Positions 5,597-37,680 of a stretch of DNA of 41,245 nt are shown piece by piece. The DNA comes from a virus (Duplodnaviria; Heunggongvirae; Uroviricota; Caudoviricetes). The first letter of the stretch is position 1, and the number at the start of each line of letters is the position of its first letter. Made by a program: the position numbers and the translations under genes. Location: the IMG/VR virus record IMGVR_UViG_2684622581_000003. One strand, written 5' to 3'. The notes below the pieces were generated by a model. It worked only from the letters and a program-made list of their open reading frames with translations. It searched no databases and was not told the origin of the DNA.

Positions 5597-7594
5597 CTAT
5601 TCTGACAACGCATCAGACTTAGCCCCCTGCGTCAGAGCGTTAATTGCATTTTGTGCCTGCTGCATTGCTTTCTCAAAGGCTGTTGATCCGCGTGGGGTGT
5701 TTGCCATTCGGAGCATTGCATTTCTGAATGGCTCGCTCTCATAGGCGCGAGTAAGAAGTCCGTAGCTTACTGCTGCGCCAGTTGTCGCCGGGTTCATTGC
5801 CGTCCCATACCCAATAATGAACGGGATAGTTTGCTGTCCTGTGGGTGTTGTTACTGCCGCTTTTGCAGCCTGCTGCGTGGATTGCAGGTAGTTTTTCAAT
5901 CCTTTCAGATAAGCAGCGTCCTGCCCCTTAAATGTGATGCCAGTCTGGTTTTGCAGGATGTTAAGCTGCCGAAGGAACTGGTCAGGGGATCCGCCAGATT
6001 TCTCCATCGCCTTTCCAATGATGCCATTGCGCATTTGCGCCCTGCCAACACGACCAACTGAGTTATACAGCGTCTTAATTTCAGATTTGTTCTTGCTGAA
6101 TAGCATGTTGTTGACAACTTCCGGCGTCAGATCGCCTTTCATGAGAACATTCTTCAGCCTGGTATTCTTTAGTTTCGCTGCTTCGTCAGCGTAGACGGCA
6201 TTGGCCTGCTGATATTTACGGAGAGTATCGTTGCCAAGATTCTGACCAATGGCACCATTGATATCGTCTGTCATCGCCTTGTAAACGCGCTGAATGGCGG
6301 CATCGGAACGGTTTGGTAACACTGGTCGCTCACCCTTCACGTCCATTCTGAACTGGCTGCGCAGGTCGCTTAATTGCTTCAAATCCAGATTTACCGGACC
6401 ATCAGGACCAGCATTGCGAACAAGCTCATCACGATATGACTGAAGTTTTGAAATAGTCTCGTTATCAGCAACCTTACCAAGCTTCTGCAGGTTAGATATT
6501 TCTGTATCAATCTGCTGAATTGCTCGTGCAGGCTGAATGTTTACTCCAGCCATAGCATTCTGAACCTGCTCCAGTCGATTACCGGCGGCACGACGAATTC
6601 CTGATGTTTTCGCTTTAAGGCTGTCAATAACAACAGCTGGATCATACTCACCGAATTTATCAGCAAATCTCTGCACCAACTGGCTTCTCGCTTCCTGTTG
6701 CGTTGCTCTCATTCCGCTTGTGCCAGCCAGAGGGATATTTTCTGCTGTAGTCTGCGCCATTTTTCCGACGCGTGAAGTTGGTTGTAACAGGTCTGTGGTG
6801 TGCAGAGGAACTCCTTCACGCTCTGCAAATCTGATAGCCTGCTGCGCTTCTGGCGCAATAGCACCACGTACGCCACGATAAGCAGCACCTAATCCACGTC
6901 CGGCAGCGTTAATAGCACCGCCAGCCAGCACACCAACGCCTAAATCGGTGGCGAGTGCTTCCGCATCATCTTTCGCACTATTTGCAGCAAGTGATCCAAC
7001 TGCGTTTTCAGCGAGAAGGCGAGTTGCACCCTGAGCAATTCGACCAGCAAGTGTTGGTGCCTGTGTTGCCGCTCTCTCAACGCCAGCAGGAGTGAGGTAA
7101 GGCAATGCTTCAGCAAATACCCTTCCCTCTGTCGTTTGTGGAGTCAGCGCGCCTTGCTGAAGGCCAAAGTCCTGCTCTAATCCCTGCGTTGTTACTCGTG
7201 GCGCTGGGTGATATGTACCATCGCCAATGCCGAGTTTACCGCCAGCCCAAGCCGCCGCGCTTGTTACAGCATCTGCAACTGATGCAGGTATGTTTGCCAC
7301 GTTCACGCCAGCCTGCACCAGTCCGCGACCAGTCTCTTTTACTGCTTCGCCAAGATCAGACATAAATCCACTTTGCTGTGGTTGTTGCTGTGCTTCTGGT
7401 TGTTGTGTCTCCACTGGCTGCACAGATGGCAATGGATAGGCAGCATAGAAAGCTTGCTTAGCCTGCTCTGCATTTTCTCCGGCTTGCGGGGCCACGACTT
7501 CATTGAAGTATTGCTCCTGAGCCTGCGCTTTTTGTTCTGGTGCTAACGCCTGATACTGTGGAGAGGCGATAACATCTTTCCATGCTTTAGCCAT
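5597..7594 (-). CDS. Ejection (internal virion) protein, P22 gp16-like
   Basis: 665-aa ORF in the P22 gp16 position at the end of the gp7-gp20-gp16 series; Ala/Gln/Gly-rich composition typical of ejection proteins. Confidence 0.7.
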   Translation of the reverse strand: MAKAWKDVIASPQYQALAPEQKAQAQEQYFNEVVAPQAGENAEQAKQAFYAAYPLPSVQPVETQQPEAQQQPQQSGFMSDLGEAVKETGRGLVQAGVNVANIPASVADAVTSAAAWAGGKLGIGDGTYHPAPRVTTQGLEQDFGLQQGALTPQTTEGRVFAEALPYLTPAGVERAATQAPTLAGRIAQGATRLLAENAVGSLAANSAKDDAEALATDLGVGVLAGGAINAAGRGLGAAYRGVRGAIAPEAQQAIRFAEREGVPLHTTDLLQPTSRVGKMAQTTAENIPLAGTSGMRATQQEARSQLVQRFADKFGEYDPAVVIDSLKAKTSGIRRAAGNRLEQVQNAMAGVNIQPARAIQQIDTEISNLQKLGKVADNETISKLQSYRDELVRNAGPDGPVNLDLKQLSDLRSQFRMDVKGERPVLPNRSDAAIQRVYKAMTDDINGAIGQNLGNDTLRKYQQANAVYADEAAKLKNTRLKNVLMKGDLTPEVVNNMLFSKNKSEIKTLYNSVGRVGRAQMRNGIIGKAMEKSGGSPDQFLRQLNILQNQTGITFKGQDAAYLKGLKNYLQSTQQAAKAAVTTPTGQQTIPFIIGYGTAMNPATTGAAVSYGLLTRAYESEPFRNAMLRMANTPRGSTAFEKAMQQAQNAINALTQGAKSDALSE

Positions 7595-30145: not shown

Positions 30146-30263
30146 ATGCCCTCCATAGTAACCATGAAACAATAATACGATATGTACTTTTAGAATGCAA
30201 ACAAAAAAATACATCTTGTGCATGGATGGTTTTAGTACAGAGCGTAATAATAAGGGTATGAAA
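30146..30263. promoter_or_regulatory. Right operator/promoter region (OR, PR, PRM) between divergent cro and cI
   Basis: 118-bp AT-rich divergent intergenic region; individual operators not resolved by eye. Confidence 0.5.
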
Positions 30264-30917
30264 ATGAAATGGTATGAACTGGCTAGATCCAGAATGAAAG
30301 AGCTCGGCATAACTCAAGAGAAGTTAGCTGAAGAGCTTGGTATGACGCAGGGTGGAATTGGTCACTGGTTGCGCGGATCTCGTCATCCATCTCTTGACGA
30401 GATTGGTGTGGTGTTTAAATACCTTGGTATTGATAACGTCTCATTCAACCACGACGGTACATTTTCACCTGTTGGCGAATACTCATCTGCCCCCGTTAAA
30501 AAACAATATGAGTACCCTGTTTTTTCTCATGTTCAGGCCGGGATGTTCTCGCCTGAGCTTAGAACCTTTACCAAAGGTGATGCGGAGAGATGGGTCAGCA
30601 CAACCAAAAAAGCCAGTGATTGTGCGTTCTGGCTTGAAGTTGAAGGTAATTCCATGACCGCGCCAACAGGATCCAAGCCAAGCTTTCCTGACGGGATGTT
30701 AATTCTCGTTGACCCTGAGCAGGCTGTTGAGCCAGGTGATTTCTGCATAGCCAGACTTGGTGGTGACGAGTTTACCTTCAAGAAACTGATCAGGGATAGC
30801 GGTCAGGTGTTCCTACAGCCACTAAACCCGCAATATCCAATGATTCCATGCAATGATAGCTGTTCCGTAGTAGGGAAAGTTATCGCCAGCCAGTGGCCTG
30901 AAGAGACATTTAGTTAA
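30264..30917 (+). CDS. cI: CI repressor: non-lambda N-terminal HTH domain fused to a lambda-type C-terminal LexA-like (S24) cleavage/dimerisation domain
   Basis: C-terminal region [52 protein letters not shown]...[11 protein letters not shown] matches lambda CI; N-terminal region does not. Start chosen at the ATG with AAGGG 7 nt upstream; the ORF track begins at 30195. Confidence 0.85.
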
Positions 30918-30948
30918 CAGCCTCACAACTCTAAAACACACAACAATA

Positions 30949-30978
30949 ACCCGACCTTAGCGTCGGGTTTTCTTTTTC
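30949..30978 (+). terminator. Intrinsic terminator downstream of cI
   Basis: Stem acccgac / gtcgggt with 6-nt loop followed by tttctttttcc. Confidence 0.6.
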
Positions 30979-31043
30979 CAAAATATAAACCCATTAAATA
31001 CAAAGCGTTATAAAAAACTAATTATATTTAGAACATTTTGTAT

Positions 31044-31072
31044 TGACTCGATAAAGTACAAATCGTACTATT
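31044..31072 (+). promoter_or_regulatory. PL-like early-left promoter with flanking OL palindrome
   Basis: TTGACT, 17-bp spacer, TACTAT, oriented toward N; palindrome tttgta...tacaaa overlaps the -35 to -10 region. Confidence 0.6.
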
Positions 31073-31110: not shown

Positions 31111-31141
31111 TGCTCTTAAAAATTTAGCCCTGAAGAAGGGC
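31111..31141 (+). promoter_or_regulatory. nutL (boxA plus boxB)
   Basis: tgctcttaa followed by gccctgaagaagggc, matching lambda nutL boxB. Confidence 0.85.
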
Positions 31142-31251
31142 AGCATTCAAAGCAGAAAGCTTTGAGTAGCGCGAAATGCAGCTGCAAGACAGCAACCGTG
31201 GAGATAAGCATCACGGCGCGTTACTCAAAGCTAACTGACAGGAGAATCCAG

Positions 31252-31578
31252 ATGGATGCACAAACACGCCGCCGCGAACGTCGCGCAGAGAAACAGGCTC
31301 AATGGAAAGCAGCAAATCCCCTGTTGGTTGGGGTAAGCGCAAAACCAGTTAACCGCCCTATTCTCTCGCTGAATCGCAAACCGAAATCACGAGTAGAAAG
31401 CGCACTGAATCCGATAGACCTTACGGTGCTGGCTGAATACCACGAACAGATTGAAAGCAACCTGCAACGTATTGAGCGCAAGAATCAGCGCACATGGTAC
31501 AGCAAGCCACGTAGTGAAATGGGTGTGACTTGTGTTGGTCGCCAGAAAATGAAATTAGGCAGCAAACCACTTATTTGA
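31252..31578 (+). CDS. N: N antiterminator, lambda type
   Basis: MDAQTRRRERRAEKQAQWKAANPLLVGVSAKPVNRPILSLNRKPKSRVESALNPIDLTVLAEYH.QIESNLQRIERKNQRTWYSKP matches lambda N; start set at the aligned Met. Confidence 0.9.
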   Translation: MDAQTRRRERRAEKQAQWKAANPLLVGVSAKPVNRPILSLNRKPKSRVESALNPIDLTVLAEYHEQIESNLQRIERKNQRTWYSKPRSEMGVTCVGRQKMKLGSKPLI

Positions 31579-31589
31579 GAGGAATTAAT

Positions 31590-32213
31590 ATGTCATCAAT
31601 CCGCTTAACTACGAGAATGAAAGAGAAAATCGCTCGTAACGCTTTAATTAAGTGTGGGGTTTTCACTGAGCTTGAAGAAGTAACAAAGTTAAAGAACCAG
31701 CTTGCACTTGACGCCAGAGTTATTGCGTTTGGCGGTAAAAAGAAAACTGAGGAAGTGGATCAGTTATCATCCAAGTTGGTAGCTATAAGTGAAGAACTTG
31801 GAAAGATGGGATGTTCATTTTACTCATACGATGTTCGTTCTACTTCAATTTATCTGACTGTATCTGGCAGAAGGGCTGGATGGCATTCATATGGGAAAGA
31901 CGGCAACGGCGAAGATATATTGCTCCCTACTCCGACAAAAGATAAATGCATGTTTGACGCAGAGCACGAAATAACAAAAAGGTTTGATGAAATCTGCTCA
32001 TTACAACAAAAACTTGAAGCCAAGAAAAAGGATATCGAATCAAATGTATGGGCTGCTTTAAACTCAGTCACAACAGTTAAGCGACTTATTGAGGTTTGGC
32101 CTGAAAGCAAAGAGTTGCTACCAAAAGAAGCAGATAAAGCAAGTACAGCACTTCCTGCTTTACGGGTAGAAGATTTGAATAAGATGATTGGACTTCCTTC
32201 CGATGCCGCATAA
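31590..32213 (+). CDS. Hypothetical protein (207 aa), AT-rich accessory gene immediately downstream of N
   Basis: ORF with GAGAGGA Shine-Dalgarno 8 nt upstream of the ATG; AT-rich and Lys-rich; no recognisable family; lies upstream of the first intrinsic terminator of the PL operon. Confidence 0.65.
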   Translation: MSSIRLTTRMKEKIARNALIKCGVFTELEEVTKLKNQLALDARVIAFGGKKKTEEVDQLSSKLVAISEELGKMGCSFYSYDVRSTSIYLTVSGRRAGWHSYGKDGNGEDILLPTPTKDKCMFDAEHEITKRFDEICSLQQKLEAKKKDIESNVWAALNSVTTVKRLIEVWPESKELLPKEADKASTALPALRVEDLNKMIGLPSDAA

Positions 32214-32347
32214 TCGTCCTTTATTTTTGGCATAAACAACAGAATAAACACAGCACTGTGTATTCATTCCAACGAGTGAATACACGGAGCAATGTCGCTC
32301 GTAACTAAACAGGAGCCGACTTGTTCTGATTATTGGAAATCTTCTTT

Positions 32348-32375
32348 GCCCTCCAGTGTGAGGGCGATTTTTTTT
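32348..32375 (+). terminator. Intrinsic terminator (tL1-like) between the two accessory genes
   Basis: Stem gccctc / gagggc with 6-nt loop followed by a T8 run, ending 13 nt before the next start codon. Confidence 0.6.
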
Positions 32376-32387
32376 GACGGAGGATAT

Positions 32388-33356
32388 ATGAGTGAAGTAA
32401 CAGATTTAGTTGTTATTGAAAAAGCAAATGCAATGACTGTATTTCAGTCTGCCGACCAGATTGAAGAAATCCTTCAAAAGGTTGAACGCGAAGTTATGTC
32501 CTTTGTGCCTGATATCACAACGGCAAAGGGCAGAAAGGAGATCGCTTCTCTGGCGTATAAAGTTGCGCAGACGAAAACATATCTCGATGGTCTTGGCAAA
32601 GACCTTGTTGCTGAACTGAAGGAAATTCCAAAGCTAATTGATGCTAACCGCAAGACAGTGCGTGATCGCCTTGATGAGCTGAAAGCCAGGGCACGCCAGC
32701 CTCTTACTGATTATGAGGAAGAACAGGCGCGGATTAAAGCAGAAGAAGAAGCTAGGGCAGCAGCTGAAGCTCTCGAAAAGCAAATTGAGTCTGACCATGA
32801 AATAGCGATTTTGATGGATCGCGAATTTGACCGCCAAAGAGAAGAGGCAAGACTCAAAGCGGAGCAGGAAAATCGAGAGCATGAAGAACGCTTAAAAAGA
32901 GAAGCTGAAGAGAAAGCCAGAGCAGAAGCCGAAGCAAAGGCAAAAGCCGAAATTGAAGCAGCAGCAAGACGAGAAGCAGAAGCTAAGGCCGCAGCGGAAC
33001 GTGCAGAGCGTGAACGCATTGAAGCCGTGCAACAAGCACAGCGCGAAGCAAAAGAGGCAGCAGAACGAGCTGAAAGAGAAAAGCAGGCAGCAATTGAAGC
33101 AGAACGCAGAAAAGCACAGGAGGAGGCTGAACAAATCCGTCGCGATGCTGAAGCAAAAGAGCAAGCCAGAATAGCAGAAGAAAAAAGAATCAAGGACGAA
33201 GAAGAGCGTAGAGCAAAGGATAAAGCTCACCGGAAAGACGTAAATAACAAAATACTTGCTGACCTTATCAAGGTTGGTGCATCAGAAGATGTTGCTAAAA
33301 ATATCATAACAGCCATCGTAAAAGGCGAAGTATTCGCAACAAAAATAACCTACTAA
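32388..33356 (+). CDS. Hypothetical coiled-coil protein (322 aa) with highly charged E/A/R/K-rich central helix
   Basis: GGAGG Shine-Dalgarno upstream of the ATG; N-terminal domain of about 120 aa, then about 150 aa of low-complexity charged helix (AEEKARAEAEAKAKAEIEAAARREAEAKAAAERAERER...), then a short C-terminal domain; ORF-track start is 32292. Confidence 0.65.
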   Translation: MSEVTDLVVIEKANAMTVFQSADQIEEILQKVEREVMSFVPDITTAKGRKEIASLAYKVAQTKTYLDGLGKDLVAELKEIPKLIDANRKTVRDRLDELKARARQPLTDYEEEQARIKAEEEARAAAEALEKQIESDHEIAILMDREFDRQREEARLKAEQENREHEERLKREAEEKARAEAEAKAKAEIEAAARREAEAKAAAERAERERIEAVQQAQREAKEAAERAEREKQAAIEAERRKAQEEAEQIRRDAEAKEQARIAEEKRIKDEEERRAKDKAHRKDVNNKILADLIKVGASEDVAKNIITAIVKGEVFATKITY

Positions 33357-33380: not shown

Positions 33381-33512
33381 ATGATTTACGCAATCGCGGG
33401 AGGCGCTCGCATGGGTGCCTTCCAACTAAATGAATCTTTACTTGAACGAATCACCCGTAAATTACGTGACGGATGGAAAAGAGTTGAGGTCTTATTATGC
33501 GCAATGAAATAG
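33381..33512 (+). CDS. cIII: CIII-like protease inhibitor
   Basis: Hand-translated 43-aa ORF MIYAIAGGARMGAFQLNESLLERITRKLRDGWKRVEVLLCAMK; the ESLLERITRKLRDGWKR core matches lambda CIII; AAGGA Shine-Dalgarno upstream. Confidence 0.6.
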   Translation: MIYAIAGGARMGAFQLNESLLERITRKLRDGWKRVEVLLCAMK

Positions 33513-33649
33513 CCATCAATCACCAGATGCTTCGTGCAGCACAGAACAAAGCAGTAATAGCCAGATTTATTGGTGATTCAAAAATGTGGATTGAAGCAAA
33601 TAAAGCGATGAAATCAGCTATCAACCTTCCGTGGTATCGCAGGAAATGA
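33497..33649 (+). CDS. kil: Kil-like host cell-division inhibitor
   Basis: Hand-translated 50-aa ORF MRNEIAINHQMLRAAQNKAVIARFIGDSKMWIEANKAMKSAINLPWYRRK, resembling lambda Kil (IATFIGDEKMF...); overlaps the cIII stop. Confidence 0.5.
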   Translation: MRNEIAINHQMLRAAQNKAVIARFIGDSKMWIEANKAMKSAINLPWYRRK

Positions 33650-33905
33650 GTTTTACAGATAACTGGTCAGACGAAGAATTCATTCGTCAGATGAAAGATT
33701 TAATCGGTAACGAAGGAGATATTCATGTCACTTGCAACCACAGTGAAGGAGAGCAAGTTACAGAGACGCATGTACACGCAGAAAGCTCTCTGGTATCGCC
33801 ATAATGGTGACCGCGAAGGAATGCGGGTATGCCTTAATTTGTCCCGAGTCGAAGTATTAAATCAGCGTTATTTCCTTGGGCCGTGTCCATTCTGAGAACA
33901 AACAT

Positions 33906-34511
33906 ATGAGCAAAGAATTTTACGCAAGACTGGCAGCCATTCAGGAGAATCTGAACGCGCCAAAGAATCAGTACAACTCATTCGGTAAATATAAATACAG
34001 AAGCTGCGAAGACATTCTTGAAGGCGTTAAGCCGTTACTGAATGGCCTGTTTTTATCAATCAGCGATGAAGTTGTGTTGATTGGTGATCGGTATTACGTG
34101 AAAGCAACAGCAACTATTACTGATGGCGAAAACAGTCATACAGCAACCGCCCTTGCACGAGAGGAAGAAAGCAAGAAAGGAATGGATTCTGCACAAGTTA
34201 CTGGAGCTACAAGCTCTTATGCACGCAAGTATTGCCTCAATGGTTTGTTCGGCATTGATGATGCGAAAGATGCAGATACCGACGAGCATAAACATCAGCA
34301 GAACGCAGCAGCAAAGCAATCAAAACCATCACCTACATCTGAACAGGTTCTAAAAGCATTCACTGACGCAGCATTGCAGAAAAACACCGTAGAAGAGCTT
34401 AAACAGGCGTTCGCCAAAGCGTGGAAGATGCTCGAAGGCACACCGGAGCAGCACAAAGCGCAGGACGTTTACAACATCAGACGAGACGAATTAGAAGGAG
34501 CGGCTGCTTAA
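33906..34511 (+). CDS. erf: Erf-family single-strand annealing recombinase (P22 Erf-like)
   Basis: MSKEFYARLAAIQENLNAPKNQYNSFGKYKYRSCEDILEGVKPLL.GLFLSISDE.VLIGDRYYVKATATITDGENSH matches P22 Erf; start set at the aligned Met. Confidence 0.9.
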   Translation: MSKEFYARLAAIQENLNAPKNQYNSFGKYKYRSCEDILEGVKPLLNGLFLSISDEVVLIGDRYYVKATATITDGENSHTATALAREEESKKGMDSAQVTGATSSYARKYCLNGLFGIDDAKDADTDEHKHQQNAAAKQSKPSPTSEQVLKAFTDAALQKNTVEELKQAFAKAWKMLEGTPEQHKAQDVYNIRRDELEGAAA

Positions 34512-34894
34512 TGGCACATTCGATTACTGTAAGACTAAACAAGCCCGCAAGAGAGTTTCAGGCCGGGGAAAATATCGGATTCAACATCCGTGCTGGCGTT
34601 CAGTATTACGATCGCCAGACAAAAAAGAAAGAATGGACAAACTACAGCGCCGTTGTATTTGCCAAGCCGGGAGCGCAAGCGGATTACTACCGTAGTGTTC
34701 TTGTTGAAGGTGGCATTGTAGAAATTACCGGAGAAAACATCAGGGTTGATGTTTATCAGGGGCAAAATGGTCAATCAATCACTCTTGAATTACTGAATGC
34801 AAAGATTGGATTTGCAACTTCAGGAAACAGCCAACAGCAACAAAGTAGCAATCATCAAAATCATCCTGAATACGACGATTCAATTCCCTTCTAA
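34511..34894 (+). CDS. SSB-like single-stranded DNA-binding protein (occupies the P22 abc1 position)
   Basis: 127-aa protein whose C-terminal tail EYDDSIPF resembles the SSB acidic tip (DDDIPF); ATG overlaps the erf stop (TAATG). Confidence 0.55.
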   Translation: MAHSITVRLNKPAREFQAGENIGFNIRAGVQYYDRQTKKKEWTNYSAVVFAKPGAQADYYRSVLVEGGIVEITGENIRVDVYQGQNGQSITLELLNAKIGFATSGNSQQQQSSNHQNHPEYDDSIPF

Positions 34895-34917: not shown

Positions 34918-35211
34918 ATGCCAGCGCCTCTGTATGGTGCGGATGACCCGCGCCGCTGTTCCGGCAATTCCGTATCGGAGGTGCTGGATAAATTCAGGAA
35001 AAACTACGATCGAATAATGTCTCTACCGCAGGAAACGAAAGAGGAAAAGGAATTTCGCCATTGTATATGGCTTGCAGAGAAAGAAGAACGCGAGCGAATT
35101 TACCAGACATCAATCCAACCATTCCGCAAAGCCACATATACCCACTTCCCTGAAATTGACCCGCGCCTGCGTAATTACCGCTCACGCTATGGCGCTATCA
35201 GTAATGACTGA
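34918..35211 (+). CDS. abc2: Abc2-like anti-RecBCD protein
   Basis: 97-aa ORF (same size as P22 Abc2) downstream of erf; identification by recall and synteny. Confidence 0.55.
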
Positions 35212-35382: not shown

Positions 35383-35802
35383 ATGAAACAAATGTCACTA
35401 ATTGAGATGGATGGATTTCTTAAAGGTAAATGCATCCCAAGTGATTTAAAGGTTAACGAAACAAACGCTGAATATCTGGTGCGTAAATTTGCTGAAGCGG
35501 AGGCCAAGTGCGCGGCGCTGGCAGCGGAGAATGCGGCGCTTAAACAGTCGGAGAAGGAATTTAATAACTTCTGTCGTCAGGAGTACTACGGTTGGGAGGA
35601 CAACTTCACGGAAACCCCAGCCACCGATGCTTTCCTGGCTGAAGTACGGGCGCAGGGGGTAGAGATGTACGCAGATAACCTCGACAACGGAGCAGACGAC
35701 GCAGAACGAGGTGGTTTTGATGATGCCGTTAAGTTTCTACGCAGTGAAGCGTCTGGTGTACGTTTGTTCGCCGACCAGCTTCGCAAAGGAGGCAACCAGT
35801 GA
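35383..35802 (+). CDS. Hypothetical protein (early-left accessory region)
   Basis: 139-aa ORF, stop overlaps the next start. Confidence 0.5.
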
Positions 35803-36344
35803 GTGTAACGGTTGAAAAGATTGATGTGTTGTCATTCGTTATAACCGGTGCAGAGCGACTAGATCCGGTTCGAGTGATGATTGAAAACTACGAACCTGGT
35901 AAGGGAAGAATCACCATCACCTGCTACGGAAAAGCGTGGACTGCGGCTTGGTTTGCTATGGGCGGTGATGATGTGCAGACGTTCATTAAGCGGGTCAGCA
36001 ACGAGTATCTAATCGGCTATTTCGACCCTCAACTGCGAAGCACGGTCGACGATGACAACGATGCAAATCTGCTTTTCGTGAAGTCAGAAATCATAAAGTT
36101 ACGAAGAGAGAGAGAAATCGACGCGGTACAGGCTCGAGAAATGTGGGACGAGGCGGAAAACGCCGATGACGTAAAAGAAAGCTGCTGTTTTTTCGGTGTC
36201 GGTAACAAACTGCTGAATCTCTTTGGTGATGATCCGTGGTATGCCGGCTGGCCAACGGCACCAAACCCGAAATACCAGTATCTGGAACGCGTACTTAATG
36301 CAGTGAGAGACGGTCTTAAGCAAATAGAGAAGGTGGAACCATGA
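35799..36344 (+). CDS. Hypothetical protein (early-left accessory region)
   Basis: 181-aa ORF with overlapping start and stop codons. Confidence 0.5.
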   Translation: MSVTVEKIDVLSFVITGAERLDPVRVMIENYEPGKGRITITCYGKAWTAAWFAMGGDDVQTFIKRVSNEYLIGYFDPQLRSTVDDDNDANLLFVKSEIIKLRREREIDAVQAREMWDEAENADDVKESCCFFGVGNKLLNLFGDDPWYAGWPTAPNPKYQYLERVLNAVRDGLKQIEKVEP

Positions 36345-37164: not shown

Positions 37165-37680
37165 ATGGCGTTAACACATCGCGAACTCTGTCAGATTGCG
37201 TACAAGTTCCTTAAGCGCAACGGGTTCAAGGTTTGTTTTCATGACCGCTTTATAGCTGTAACCAGTACCGGAGAACAGCCAGATGCTATGGGATTCAGAA
37301 ATTCAGCATCATGCCTGATAGAGGCAAAGTGTTCTCGTGCTGACTTGTTGGCAGATAGAAAAAAGCGTTTTCGTAAAAATCCGTCTCTTGGAATGGGCGA
37401 CTGGCGATTCTTTATTAGTGAGCCGGGAATTATTTCAATTGAGGATTTACCACCTGGCTGGGGATTACTTCACGTTGTTAACGGAAGAGTACGGAAAGTA
37501 CATGGATGGCCCAAGGGGAATTGCTGTTGGGGTAACCCTGAAGATAAACCTTTTATTGGGAACAAGCAGGTTGAATGCGATTACATGTTATCTGCATTAA
37601 GGCGCATGGAGTTGAGAGGGCACCTTAATGAAATATATGACGGTGTAATTGTTAATAAGAAAGAAGGAAACGCGGCATGA
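37165..37680 (+). CDS. Hypothetical protein with possible PD-(D/E)xK nuclease-like motif
   Basis: 171-aa ORF; the motif PDAMGF ... CLIEAKCS is compatible with a D...ExK catalytic core; not verified. Confidence 0.5.
   Translation: MALTHRELCQIAYKFLKRNGFKVCFHDRFIAVTSTGEQPDAMGFRNSASCLIEAKCSRADLLADRKKRFRKNPSLGMGDWRFFISEPGIISIEDLPPGWGLLHVVNGRVRKVHGWPKGNCCWGNPEDKPFIGNKQVECDYMLSALRRMELRGHLNEIYDGVIVNKKEGNAA

Follow-up and report, generated by a model that had tools for sequence, protein, structure and literature searches.

Do the two genes that follow the antiterminator gene N in the prophage of IMG/VR record IMGVR_UViG_2684622581_000003 form one undescribed exclusion or anti-defence module, as an earlier note made from the sequence had proposed? 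The window, i.e. the whole stretch of 41,245 nucleotides that was analysed, is a P22-like lambdoid prophage, and the two genes, here termed gene A and gene B, are located in its early-left (PL) operon:

31590-32213, plus strand: gene A, Nmad5-family protein of 207 amino acids (aa; Pfam PF18757; phrog_1965, E-value 2e-82)
32388-33356, plus strand: gene B, Sf6 gene 33/phrog_1376 family protein of 322 aa (phrog_1376, E-value 1.3e-108)

Both open reading frames (ORFs) are present behind N as had been described, and both are regarded as real genes since many homologues of each are conserved over the full length. The account favoured here, which as a whole is on balance probable, is that of two independent PL-operon genes, of which gene A would encode a binding protein and gene B a recombination-linked spacer. 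The pair had been put forward as the best candidate for new biology in the window; what was found instead are two families already catalogued, the members of which do not act as a pair, and the result for the window is mainly a correction of that expectation.

Neither protein had been recognised in the earlier note, and both could be assigned by database searches. The Pfam profile PF18757 (Nmad5, nucleotide modification associated domain 5) matches gene A with 237.9 bits (E-value 1.5e-70), which is above the gathering score of 27 bits, and residues 4-203 align to positions 1-206 of the 206 profile positions. The exact gene A sequence is found as RefSeq WP_053265702.1, named 'Nmad5 family putative nucleotide modification protein'; its 90%-identity cluster comprises 2436 sequences. 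A nucleotide query made up of the greater part of N, of Nmad5 and of the intergenic region behind it reached a coverage of at least 80% in 82 of the 5426 complete E. coli genomes, and gene A was found also in the phages mEp235, HK542 and APC_JM3.2 as well as in numerous Stx1a and Stx2a phages. The ATG start codon lies 11 base pairs (bp) past the N stop codon (31578) behind GAGAGGA, a good ribosome-binding site, and a minus-strand ORF at 31850-32251 was rejected as a gene. The foreign composition ascribed to the locus applies weakly to gene A, with a GC content of 0.401 compared to 0.469 in the window (9.5th percentile among 624-bp windows; 0.337 at third codon positions), but not to gene B, the GC content of which is ordinary (0.454).

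Gene B belongs to the family of Sf6 gene 33, as phrog_1376 covers residues 1-322, phrog_17211 the N-terminal domain (E-value 6.1e-75) and phrog_21365 the remainder (E-value 5.5e-114). In megablast searches the gene B half of the query showed 95-99% nucleotide identity to over 300 phage records, among them Sf6, CUS-3, HK544, mEp213, mEp234, IME10, Sf101 and many Stx phages, with about 97% identity to Sf6 gene 33. The exact gene B protein is absent from a collection of 15 billion proteins, in which relatives at 96% identity are present. The start codon ATG at 32388 has GGAGG upstream and is conserved in Sf6 and all homologues. A longer reading of 354 aa from 32292 was rejected because it runs through a terminator and is not conserved. 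Two minus-strand ORFs inside gene B, 32711-33193 (160 aa) and 32892-33230 (112 aa), are rich in S/A/C/F/L and were rejected as low-complexity shadows of the GAA/GCA/AAA-rich strand encoding a charged helix.

Further searches were negative. Pfam gave no match to any family for gene B together with 29 diverse relatives (30 members). The PADLOC-DB 2.0 defence models did not match gene A, and with gene B only LmuB was reported, with an E-value of 0.35 and inside the charged helix. Nothing meaningful was obtained in the NCBIfam and PADLOC scans of both genes, and the PDB sequence searches with both returned compositional matches only. When the N-terminal domain of gene B was used as a profile against a word-indexed database, close and mostly truncated relatives without Pfam labels were all that was obtained, and nothing on the function of the gene B family was found in the literature (TolA, Erf, cIII, mEp phages). 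The homology established for both genes is to functionally uncharacterised families, and not to accessory proteins of known function.

The two genes do not constitute a module, because they assort independently. The phages mEp235 and PhiR12_2 carry Nmad5 but no gene B, Nmad5 is missing from 70 of 80 loci with gene B, and three other genes are located between Nmad5 and gene B in APC_JM3.2. The survey comprised 80 IMG/VR loci carrying gene B, in which the stretch between N and gene B was analysed within the 2.6 kb upstream of the gene B homologue. This stretch contained over 50 ORF clusters that recur, along with 88 singletons; Nmad5 was present in 10 loci, Ral in 10 (Pfam, E-value 1.6e-48) and P22 gp17 in 4 (Pfam, E-value 1.9e-54). 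Nmad5 was found 11-15 bp past the N stop codon behind five different N alleles of 62-97% identity, and in mEp235 the Nun gene sits between N and Nmad5. Gene A is an accessory gene in a hypervariable, swap-prone slot after N. The Pfam models Ral (PF11058) and GP17 (PF17420) match neither gene A nor gene B, and genuine Ral and GP17 in the same slot of sister loci are recognised by these models. Among the other slot proteins of the 80 loci the commonest have 98 aa (18 loci), 156 aa (14), 74 aa (11), 53 aa (11) and 83 aa (9), and these five have no Pfam match.

The arrangement of the operon up to gene B was derived from consensus scans for promoters and terminators, from profile matches and from alignment with lambda and Sf6:

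30195-30917, plus strand: cI-like repressor gene, followed by a terminator-like hairpin and then by the PL-like promoter
31043-31071, plus strand: PL-like sigma-70 promoter TTGACT-17-TACTAT between the cI-like repressor gene and N (consensus scan)
31127-31141, plus strand: nutL boxB hairpin GCCCTGAAGAAGGGC, letters read directly in the sequence
31249-31578, plus strand: antiterminator N, 109 aa (Pfam N36, E-value 1.6e-26; phrog_271)
32222-32375, plus strand: conserved intergenic 'boundary' block with a stem-loop at 32258-32285, near-invariant in the three-way alignment with lambda and Sf6
32346-32375, plus strand: intrinsic terminator, homologue of lambda tL2a, with an 8-bp stem (32346-32367), a loop of 6 and T8 (consensus scan)

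The hairpin at 31127-31141, which we take to be identical to the boxB of lambda nutL, is flagged by the terminator scan on the minus strand, too. On the plus strand, the site at 32346-32375 is the only terminator-like one from the PL-like promoter to the start of gene B, and a weaker one is found inside gene B at 32589. The Sf6 annotation at the corresponding site reads 'homology to phage lambda; tL2A', and the lambda stem is identical. Upstream of gene B, a stretch of approximately 150 bp that contains the terminator is nearly base-for-base common to the window, the lambda ral-ea10 intergenic region (33879-34119) and Sf6 bsq4, with different genes on the two sides of the block (ral/ea10 in lambda, gp34/gp33 in Sf6, Nmad5/gp33 in the window). 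This alignment gives the block the appearance of a recombination linker ('boundary sequence') that has been conserved. Due to the fact that these 150 bp match the lambda ral-ea10 region, gene B is assigned to the ea10 position past the accessory slot. The ral/sieB slot in which both genes had been placed is thereby confined to gene A, since Ral and gp17 occupy the same slot in sister loci. Homology to Sf6-type phages begins at about 32205 (megablast), at the 3' end of gene A, and a mosaic junction is therefore located there.

Since no terminator precedes gene A, it would be transcribed together with N in the immediate-early message and its product is probably made immediately after infection or induction. 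The terminator between the two genes and the position of gene A ahead of it, on which the earlier note had based its timing argument, hold at the level of the consensus scan, and with its location directly behind N this argument is retained for gene A. Gene B, behind the tL2a-homologous terminator, would be delayed-early, i.e. expressed only upon read-through permitted by N. The consensus scan finds no own promoter for either gene, and both lie inside the repressor-controlled PL operon, which makes exclusion unlikely for both.

The product of gene B is divided into three parts:

32388-32717, plus strand: N-terminal domain (aa 1-110), the most conserved part (phrog_17211)
32718-33227, plus strand: ER/K-type single alpha-helix (aa 111-280) of indel-variable length (AlphaFold2 model and composition)
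33228-33356, plus strand: small basic C-terminal domain (aa 281-322, isoelectric point 9.2) with a conserved HRK...ITY block, and stop codon

Invariant residues of the N-terminal domain are D42, G48, R49, K63, G70, K78, D85, R88, L95, P105 and E110. When this domain was searched with HMMER against 1.84 billion cluster representatives (50% identity), 5007 matches with E<=1e-3 and 3551 with E<=1e-10 were obtained, in all of which the domain is N-terminal in proteins of 190-430 aa. AlphaFold2 predicts one uninterrupted helix from residue 69 to 295 with a predicted local distance difference test (pLDDT) score of 91-95, so that the charged helix of roughly 150 residues noted before was, if anything, underestimated. 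Residues 111-280 consist to 88% of E/K/R/A/Q/D. Pairs of opposite charge at i/i+3,4 number 82 compared to 51.4 +/- 5.4 after shuffling, a value reached by 0 of 2000 shuffles, and the hydrophobic occupancy of the heptad a/d positions has a median of 2 of 8. The homologues are 245-333 aa long and differ by indels inside the charged helix. As modelled, the region is consistent with an ER/K single alpha-helix about 25 nm long, or 34 nm if the entire predicted helix is counted, and not with a coiled coil.

Gene B is followed in the window by cIII and kil, which like N had been named correctly before, and by recombination genes:

33381-33512, plus strand: cIII (Pfam Lambda_CIII, E-value 4e-15)
33497-33649, plus strand: kil (Pfam Lambda_Kil, E-value 1.9e-19)
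33876-34511, plus strand: Erf-family single-strand annealing protein (Pfam ERF, E-value 1.9e-44), likely start ATG at 33906
34511-34894, plus strand: phage SSB (phrog_44, E-value 1.8e-28) with the C-terminus DDSIPF
34918-35211, plus strand: Abc2 anti-RecBCD protein (Pfam Anti-RecBCD_p2, E-value 2.7e-63)

A set of 94 Pseudomonas and alpha-proteobacterial loci was collected by separate searches with the homologues of Pseudomonas phage JBD44 and Sinorhizobium phage phiLM21. Across three phage lineages, 167 of the 169 loci that could be evaluated have a single-strand-annealing recombinase shortly downstream of gene B. All 75 enteric loci with enough downstream sequence have a recombinase within 2.5 kb at a median gap of 520 bp (Erf 34, Bet 26, RecT 10, Sak4 4, Rad52-like 1). 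In the Pseudomonas and alpha-proteobacterial loci gene B is followed by Erf (52) or RecT (40; Pfam, E-value 1.5e-28) and then by a YqaJ exonuclease gene in 92 of 94, and in JBD44 and phiLM21 the annealing-protein gene begins 8-12 bp past the stop codon of gene B. A divergent metagenomic homologue adjoins YqaJ directly, in the opposite order. The neighbourhood evidence is strong, yet it is association only, and action on one specific recombinase is unlikely because five non-homologous recombinase types follow gene B. Behind the trio of gene B, Erf and YqaJ in JBD44, the next gene, gp62 (5953-6291), encodes a SutA RNA polymerase-binding domain (Pfam, E-value 2.6e-11) fused to a helix-turn-helix domain and may be, judged from these domains, a phage-encoded RNA-polymerase-binding regulator.

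Taken together with its architecture, these positions suggest gene B to be a conserved companion of the phage recombination module. Its N-terminal and small basic C-terminal domains would be held about 25-34 nm apart by the length-variable ER/K helix, so that the protein could be a long spacer or tether in DNA metabolism linked to recombination. The target would probably be common to all such modules, i.e. DNA ends, single-stranded DNA with SSB, or the replication fork. A recombination-related role of gene B is considered evenly poised between right and wrong.

For gene A, AlphaFold2 predicted an all-helical bundle (pLDDT 84) that carries a small beta hairpin and ends in a flexible, conserved C-terminal tail. 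The best Foldseek matches in BFVD have E-values from 5.7e-13 to about 1e-3 and template modelling (TM) scores up to 0.76; they include every protein named Nmad5 in this database, the remainder being unnamed phage proteins, and no enzyme-like match to the predicted fold was found. The predicted fold would accordingly be classed as helical, non-enzymatic and phage-specific. The strongest conservation is found near the C-terminus:

32079-32198, plus strand: conserved C-terminal Nmad5 motif (aa 164-203), KRLIEVWPESKELLP...LPALRVEDLNKMIGLP, with invariant or near-invariant alignment columns

The motif has the form K/R-L-I-x-x-W-P-E ... L-N-x-x-I-G-x-P and runs into the low-pLDDT tail. W170, P171, E172, L196, N197, G201 and P203 are invariant across the lambdoid, Dhillonvirus, N4-like and Pseudomonas members. 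R165 (codon 32082-32084), a near-invariant basic residue before the invariant L166 and W-P-E, aligns with K296 of CDS6 of Dhillonvirus SM_S22. A single K-to-E substitution in Dhillonvirus Nmad5 (K296E in SM_S22) leads to escape from the Tmn defence system, while deletion of nmad5 does not, and the gene could not be cloned and is apparently toxic (PMC11846954). These Dhillonvirus experiments are the only ones on Nmad5, and the escape is the only published phenotype. Since K296 aligns with R165, the sole functionally implicated residue of the family is positioned in the region that gene A shares most with it.

The SM_S22 gene (PP627283, 5005-6009) is on the minus strand, opposite to the surrounding head genes, and annotated with 334 aa. 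The start M-R-L-T... that is conserved in the family corresponds to residue 81 of this annotation, and phage Ioannina annotates 253 aa. From this comparison the first 80 residues of the annotated SM_S22 Nmad5 are probably not translated, which would explain the 'truncated' SM_A8 version (PMC11846954).

The predicted fold and the Tmn link suggest that gene A binds a host or defence-related partner via the conserved C-terminal motif and does not modify nucleotides chemically, and that it might act as an early host-takeover or counter-defence factor. Such a binding-type role is the most likely one for gene A, if only tentatively so. Of the anti-defence character proposed for both genes, one published genetic link to Tmn is retained for the family of gene A (PMC11846954); for gene B it is not retained, as this gene is no accessory or defence gene and travels with recombination genes. 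More specifically, the Sf6 gp33 family could be a near-constant third component of the single-strand-annealing modules of proteobacterial temperate phages, with the ER/K helix as a 25-34 nm spacer, and separately gene A could be a stand-alone immediate-early counter-defence or host-takeover binder; put in this specific form, the proposal is doubtful.

Several points weigh against the account of an independent binder and a recombination-linked spacer. The transcription timing is drawn from sequence and lambda precedent. The link to Tmn comes from a 27%-identical homologue of an unrelated lytic phage. Nmad5 opens the thymidine-hypermodification cassettes of M6-like phages, which keeps a nucleotide-related role open (PMC9476957). 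The N-terminal domain of gene B was modelled at low confidence (pLDDT 39-69) and no fold is assigned to it. In a Vibrio phage (Zobellviridae) none of the five scanned neighbours of gene B matches Pfam and no recombinase was identified there, and in general the adjacency of gene B to recombinases could be conserved early-operon synteny of related temperate phages.

Extending the last point, gene B might be unconnected to recombination, its synteny being inherited, and serve a different delayed-early purpose, e.g. in host takeover, in regulation or in organising a replication compartment. The exchange of the recombinase among five non-homologous families next to a constant gene B argues against a specific partnership, the enteric phages keep the host-directed genes cIII and kil between gene B and the recombinase, and the Vibrio phage points in the same direction. 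In the Pseudomonas and alpha-proteobacterial phages, however, gene B abuts Erf or RecT and YqaJ comes next, and the divergent metagenomic homologue abuts YqaJ in the opposite gene order. Moreover, Firmicutes phages hold analogous DUF1351 genes in the position of gene B beside Erf, RecT or Sak4 (PMC8093625). Inherited synteny as the whole explanation is judged fairly unlikely. Homology of gene B to DUF1351 was rejected as evidence. The comparison gave a probability of 0.14% with a single sequence, and in hhalign the profile of the gene B N-terminal domain reached 11% with a score of 26.7 over one short motif against a 9-sequence alignment of DUF1351. Column shuffles had a mean of 12.6 and a maximum of 20.4, and none of 60 reached this score, but the reversed control was barely lower (23.1), and 3 of 100 block shuffles with 7 columns and 18 of 100 with 15 columns reached 26.7, which makes the score indistinguishable from local helical composition. 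DUF1351 is therefore treated as a positional analogue of gene B, distant homology being neither established nor excluded.

For gene A, in place of binding, a role as a factor in nucleotide or DNA base modification has to be weighed, e.g. as scaffold or specificity subunit that is a remnant in this prophage or works with host enzymes. The family owes its name to the leading position of Nmad5 in the thymidine-hypermodification cassette of M6-like phages, which comprises a hydroxymethylase, Nmad5, aGPT-Pplase, 5-HMUDK, rSAM and a PLP enzyme (PMC9476957). In an N4-like phage Nmad5 is found between ThyX and exonuclease, primase and Sak4 genes. In the DefensePredictor study a nucleotide-modification-associated (NMAD) domain, the family of which is not stated there, appears in validated E. 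coli defence systems beside thymidylate synthase, dNMP kinase and 5-hmdU kinase domains (Fig. 3C; PMC13092281). Against this, no hydroxymethylase, kinase, aGPT-Pplase or glycosyltransferase is encoded in the scanned early-left operon (N to int), and Nmad5 stands alone among structural or lysis genes elsewhere, namely on the opposite strand among head genes in Dhillonvirus, between terminase and portal in ZRG1, and ahead of the holin gene in C130_2. Together with the predicted fold, which lacks an enzyme-like match, this renders a modification role of gene A improbable.

The proposal of a single exclusion or anti-defence module, in which an immediate-early component would act jointly with an N-dependent one, could draw on the adjacency of the two genes on the same strand of the same operon, on the location of gene A in a known accessory hotspot and on the fact that neither protein has a known function. 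It is already largely refuted by the independent distribution of the genes and by the three intervening genes in APC_JM3.2. Moreover, the mosaic junction at the 3' end of gene A separates them, recombination genes accompany gene B in three lineages, no PADLOC defence model is matched by either protein, and a repressed PL operon in which the scan finds no own promoter counts against exclusion expressed in the lysogen. A joint module is hence regarded as highly improbable.

That gene B encodes a TolA-like cell-envelope protein, as most database records have it ('cell envelope biogenesis protein TolA', 'colicin import membrane protein'), can practically be dismissed, because the TIGR02794 match is weak (11.1 bits, E-value 0.17, cut-off 59.45) and confined to the charged low-complexity helix, the PDB matches are only compositional ones to other charged helices, and the N-terminus MSEVTDLVVIEKANAMTVFQSADQ... 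has no hydrophobic anchor, the first 40 residues being hydrophilic or amphipathic (sequence read by eye, no dedicated transmembrane predictor). The common 'TolA' label is an artefact of composition.

With respect to the remainder of the operon, several small genes are present downstream of abc2, including those for DUF7739, Ead/Ea22 and DUF551 proteins, followed by a lambda-type integrase gene. Three further early-left ORFs past abc2, 35383-35802 (139 aa), 35799-36344 (181 aa) and 37165-37680 (171 aa), have no Pfam match. At the other end, the terminator-like hairpin right behind the cI-like repressor gene (30948-30969) was flagged on both strands, with the better T-run on the plus strand, and in this prophage the interval from the repressor gene to PL contains no rexAB-type genes.

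Both gene families are known already, and neither gene would surprise a specialist, but both families remain unexplained. By name, and in some descriptions, Nmad5 proteins are 'DNA modification enzymes', while the predicted fold, the position behind N and the mapping of the Tmn residue point to a binding protein instead. The 'TolA-like' lambdoid gene represents a very large family (more than 5000 clusters at 50% identity) without Pfam entry that stays beside whichever recombinase is present. If gene B contributes to recombination, this matters for phage mosaicism and for better recombineering systems.

A comparison with known systems places gene A as follows. Lambda Ral and P22 gp17 occupy the same genomic slot and are likewise transcribed from PL, but neither they nor SieB show sequence similarity to gene A, which has three times the size of Ral. 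In the lambda record SieB is encoded on the other strand, whereas gene A is on the strand of the PL operon, and SieB is expressed from the prophage, whereas gene A would not be. With the Nmad5 family, gene A shares the whole length of the profile, the predicted fold of the phage Nmad5 proteins in BFVD and the invariant C-terminal motif; it lacks the insertion of about 45 residues present in Dhillonvirus. It differs from other Nmad5 genes by standing alone directly behind N in the PL operon of a temperate lambdoid phage, with no base-modification genes nearby. In M6/SN1-type hypermodification cassettes Nmad5 is found beside base-modifying enzymes, whereas the neighbours of gene A are N, gp33, cIII, Kil, Erf, SSB, Abc2, DUF7739, Ead/Ea22, DUF551 and Int.

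Gene B stands where lambda has ea10 (DUF2528) as the gene after tL2a, and where Sf6 has gene 33 as in the window. DUF1351 (PF07083) of Firmicutes and Bacteroides phages is likewise a helical protein of about 280-350 aa encoded right beside a single-strand annealing protein, and a short motif of gene B (K..RA.LNK...R..IKKE..P..FE) resembles one in DUF1351 (K.LVA.LK..PK.ID..RK....R.PLT.WE); the long ER/K helix is present in gene B only. To the ER/K single alpha-helix (SAH) domains of myosin-10, myosin-6 and caldesmon, gene B is alike in its high E/K/R/A content, the enrichment of i to i+3/4 pairs, the missing heptad seam and the one uninterrupted predicted helix. ER/K SAHs are a structural class and not a homologous family, and the gene B helix, with about 170-227 residues, is long for an SAH and known from prediction only. 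Gene B is also related to Pseudomonas phage D3 orf53 and JBD44 gp65. Gene 33 of Sf6 has the same length of 322 aa, the same upstream tL2A and bsq4 boundary and the same downstream cIII, kil and recombination genes, without a difference of note from gene B.

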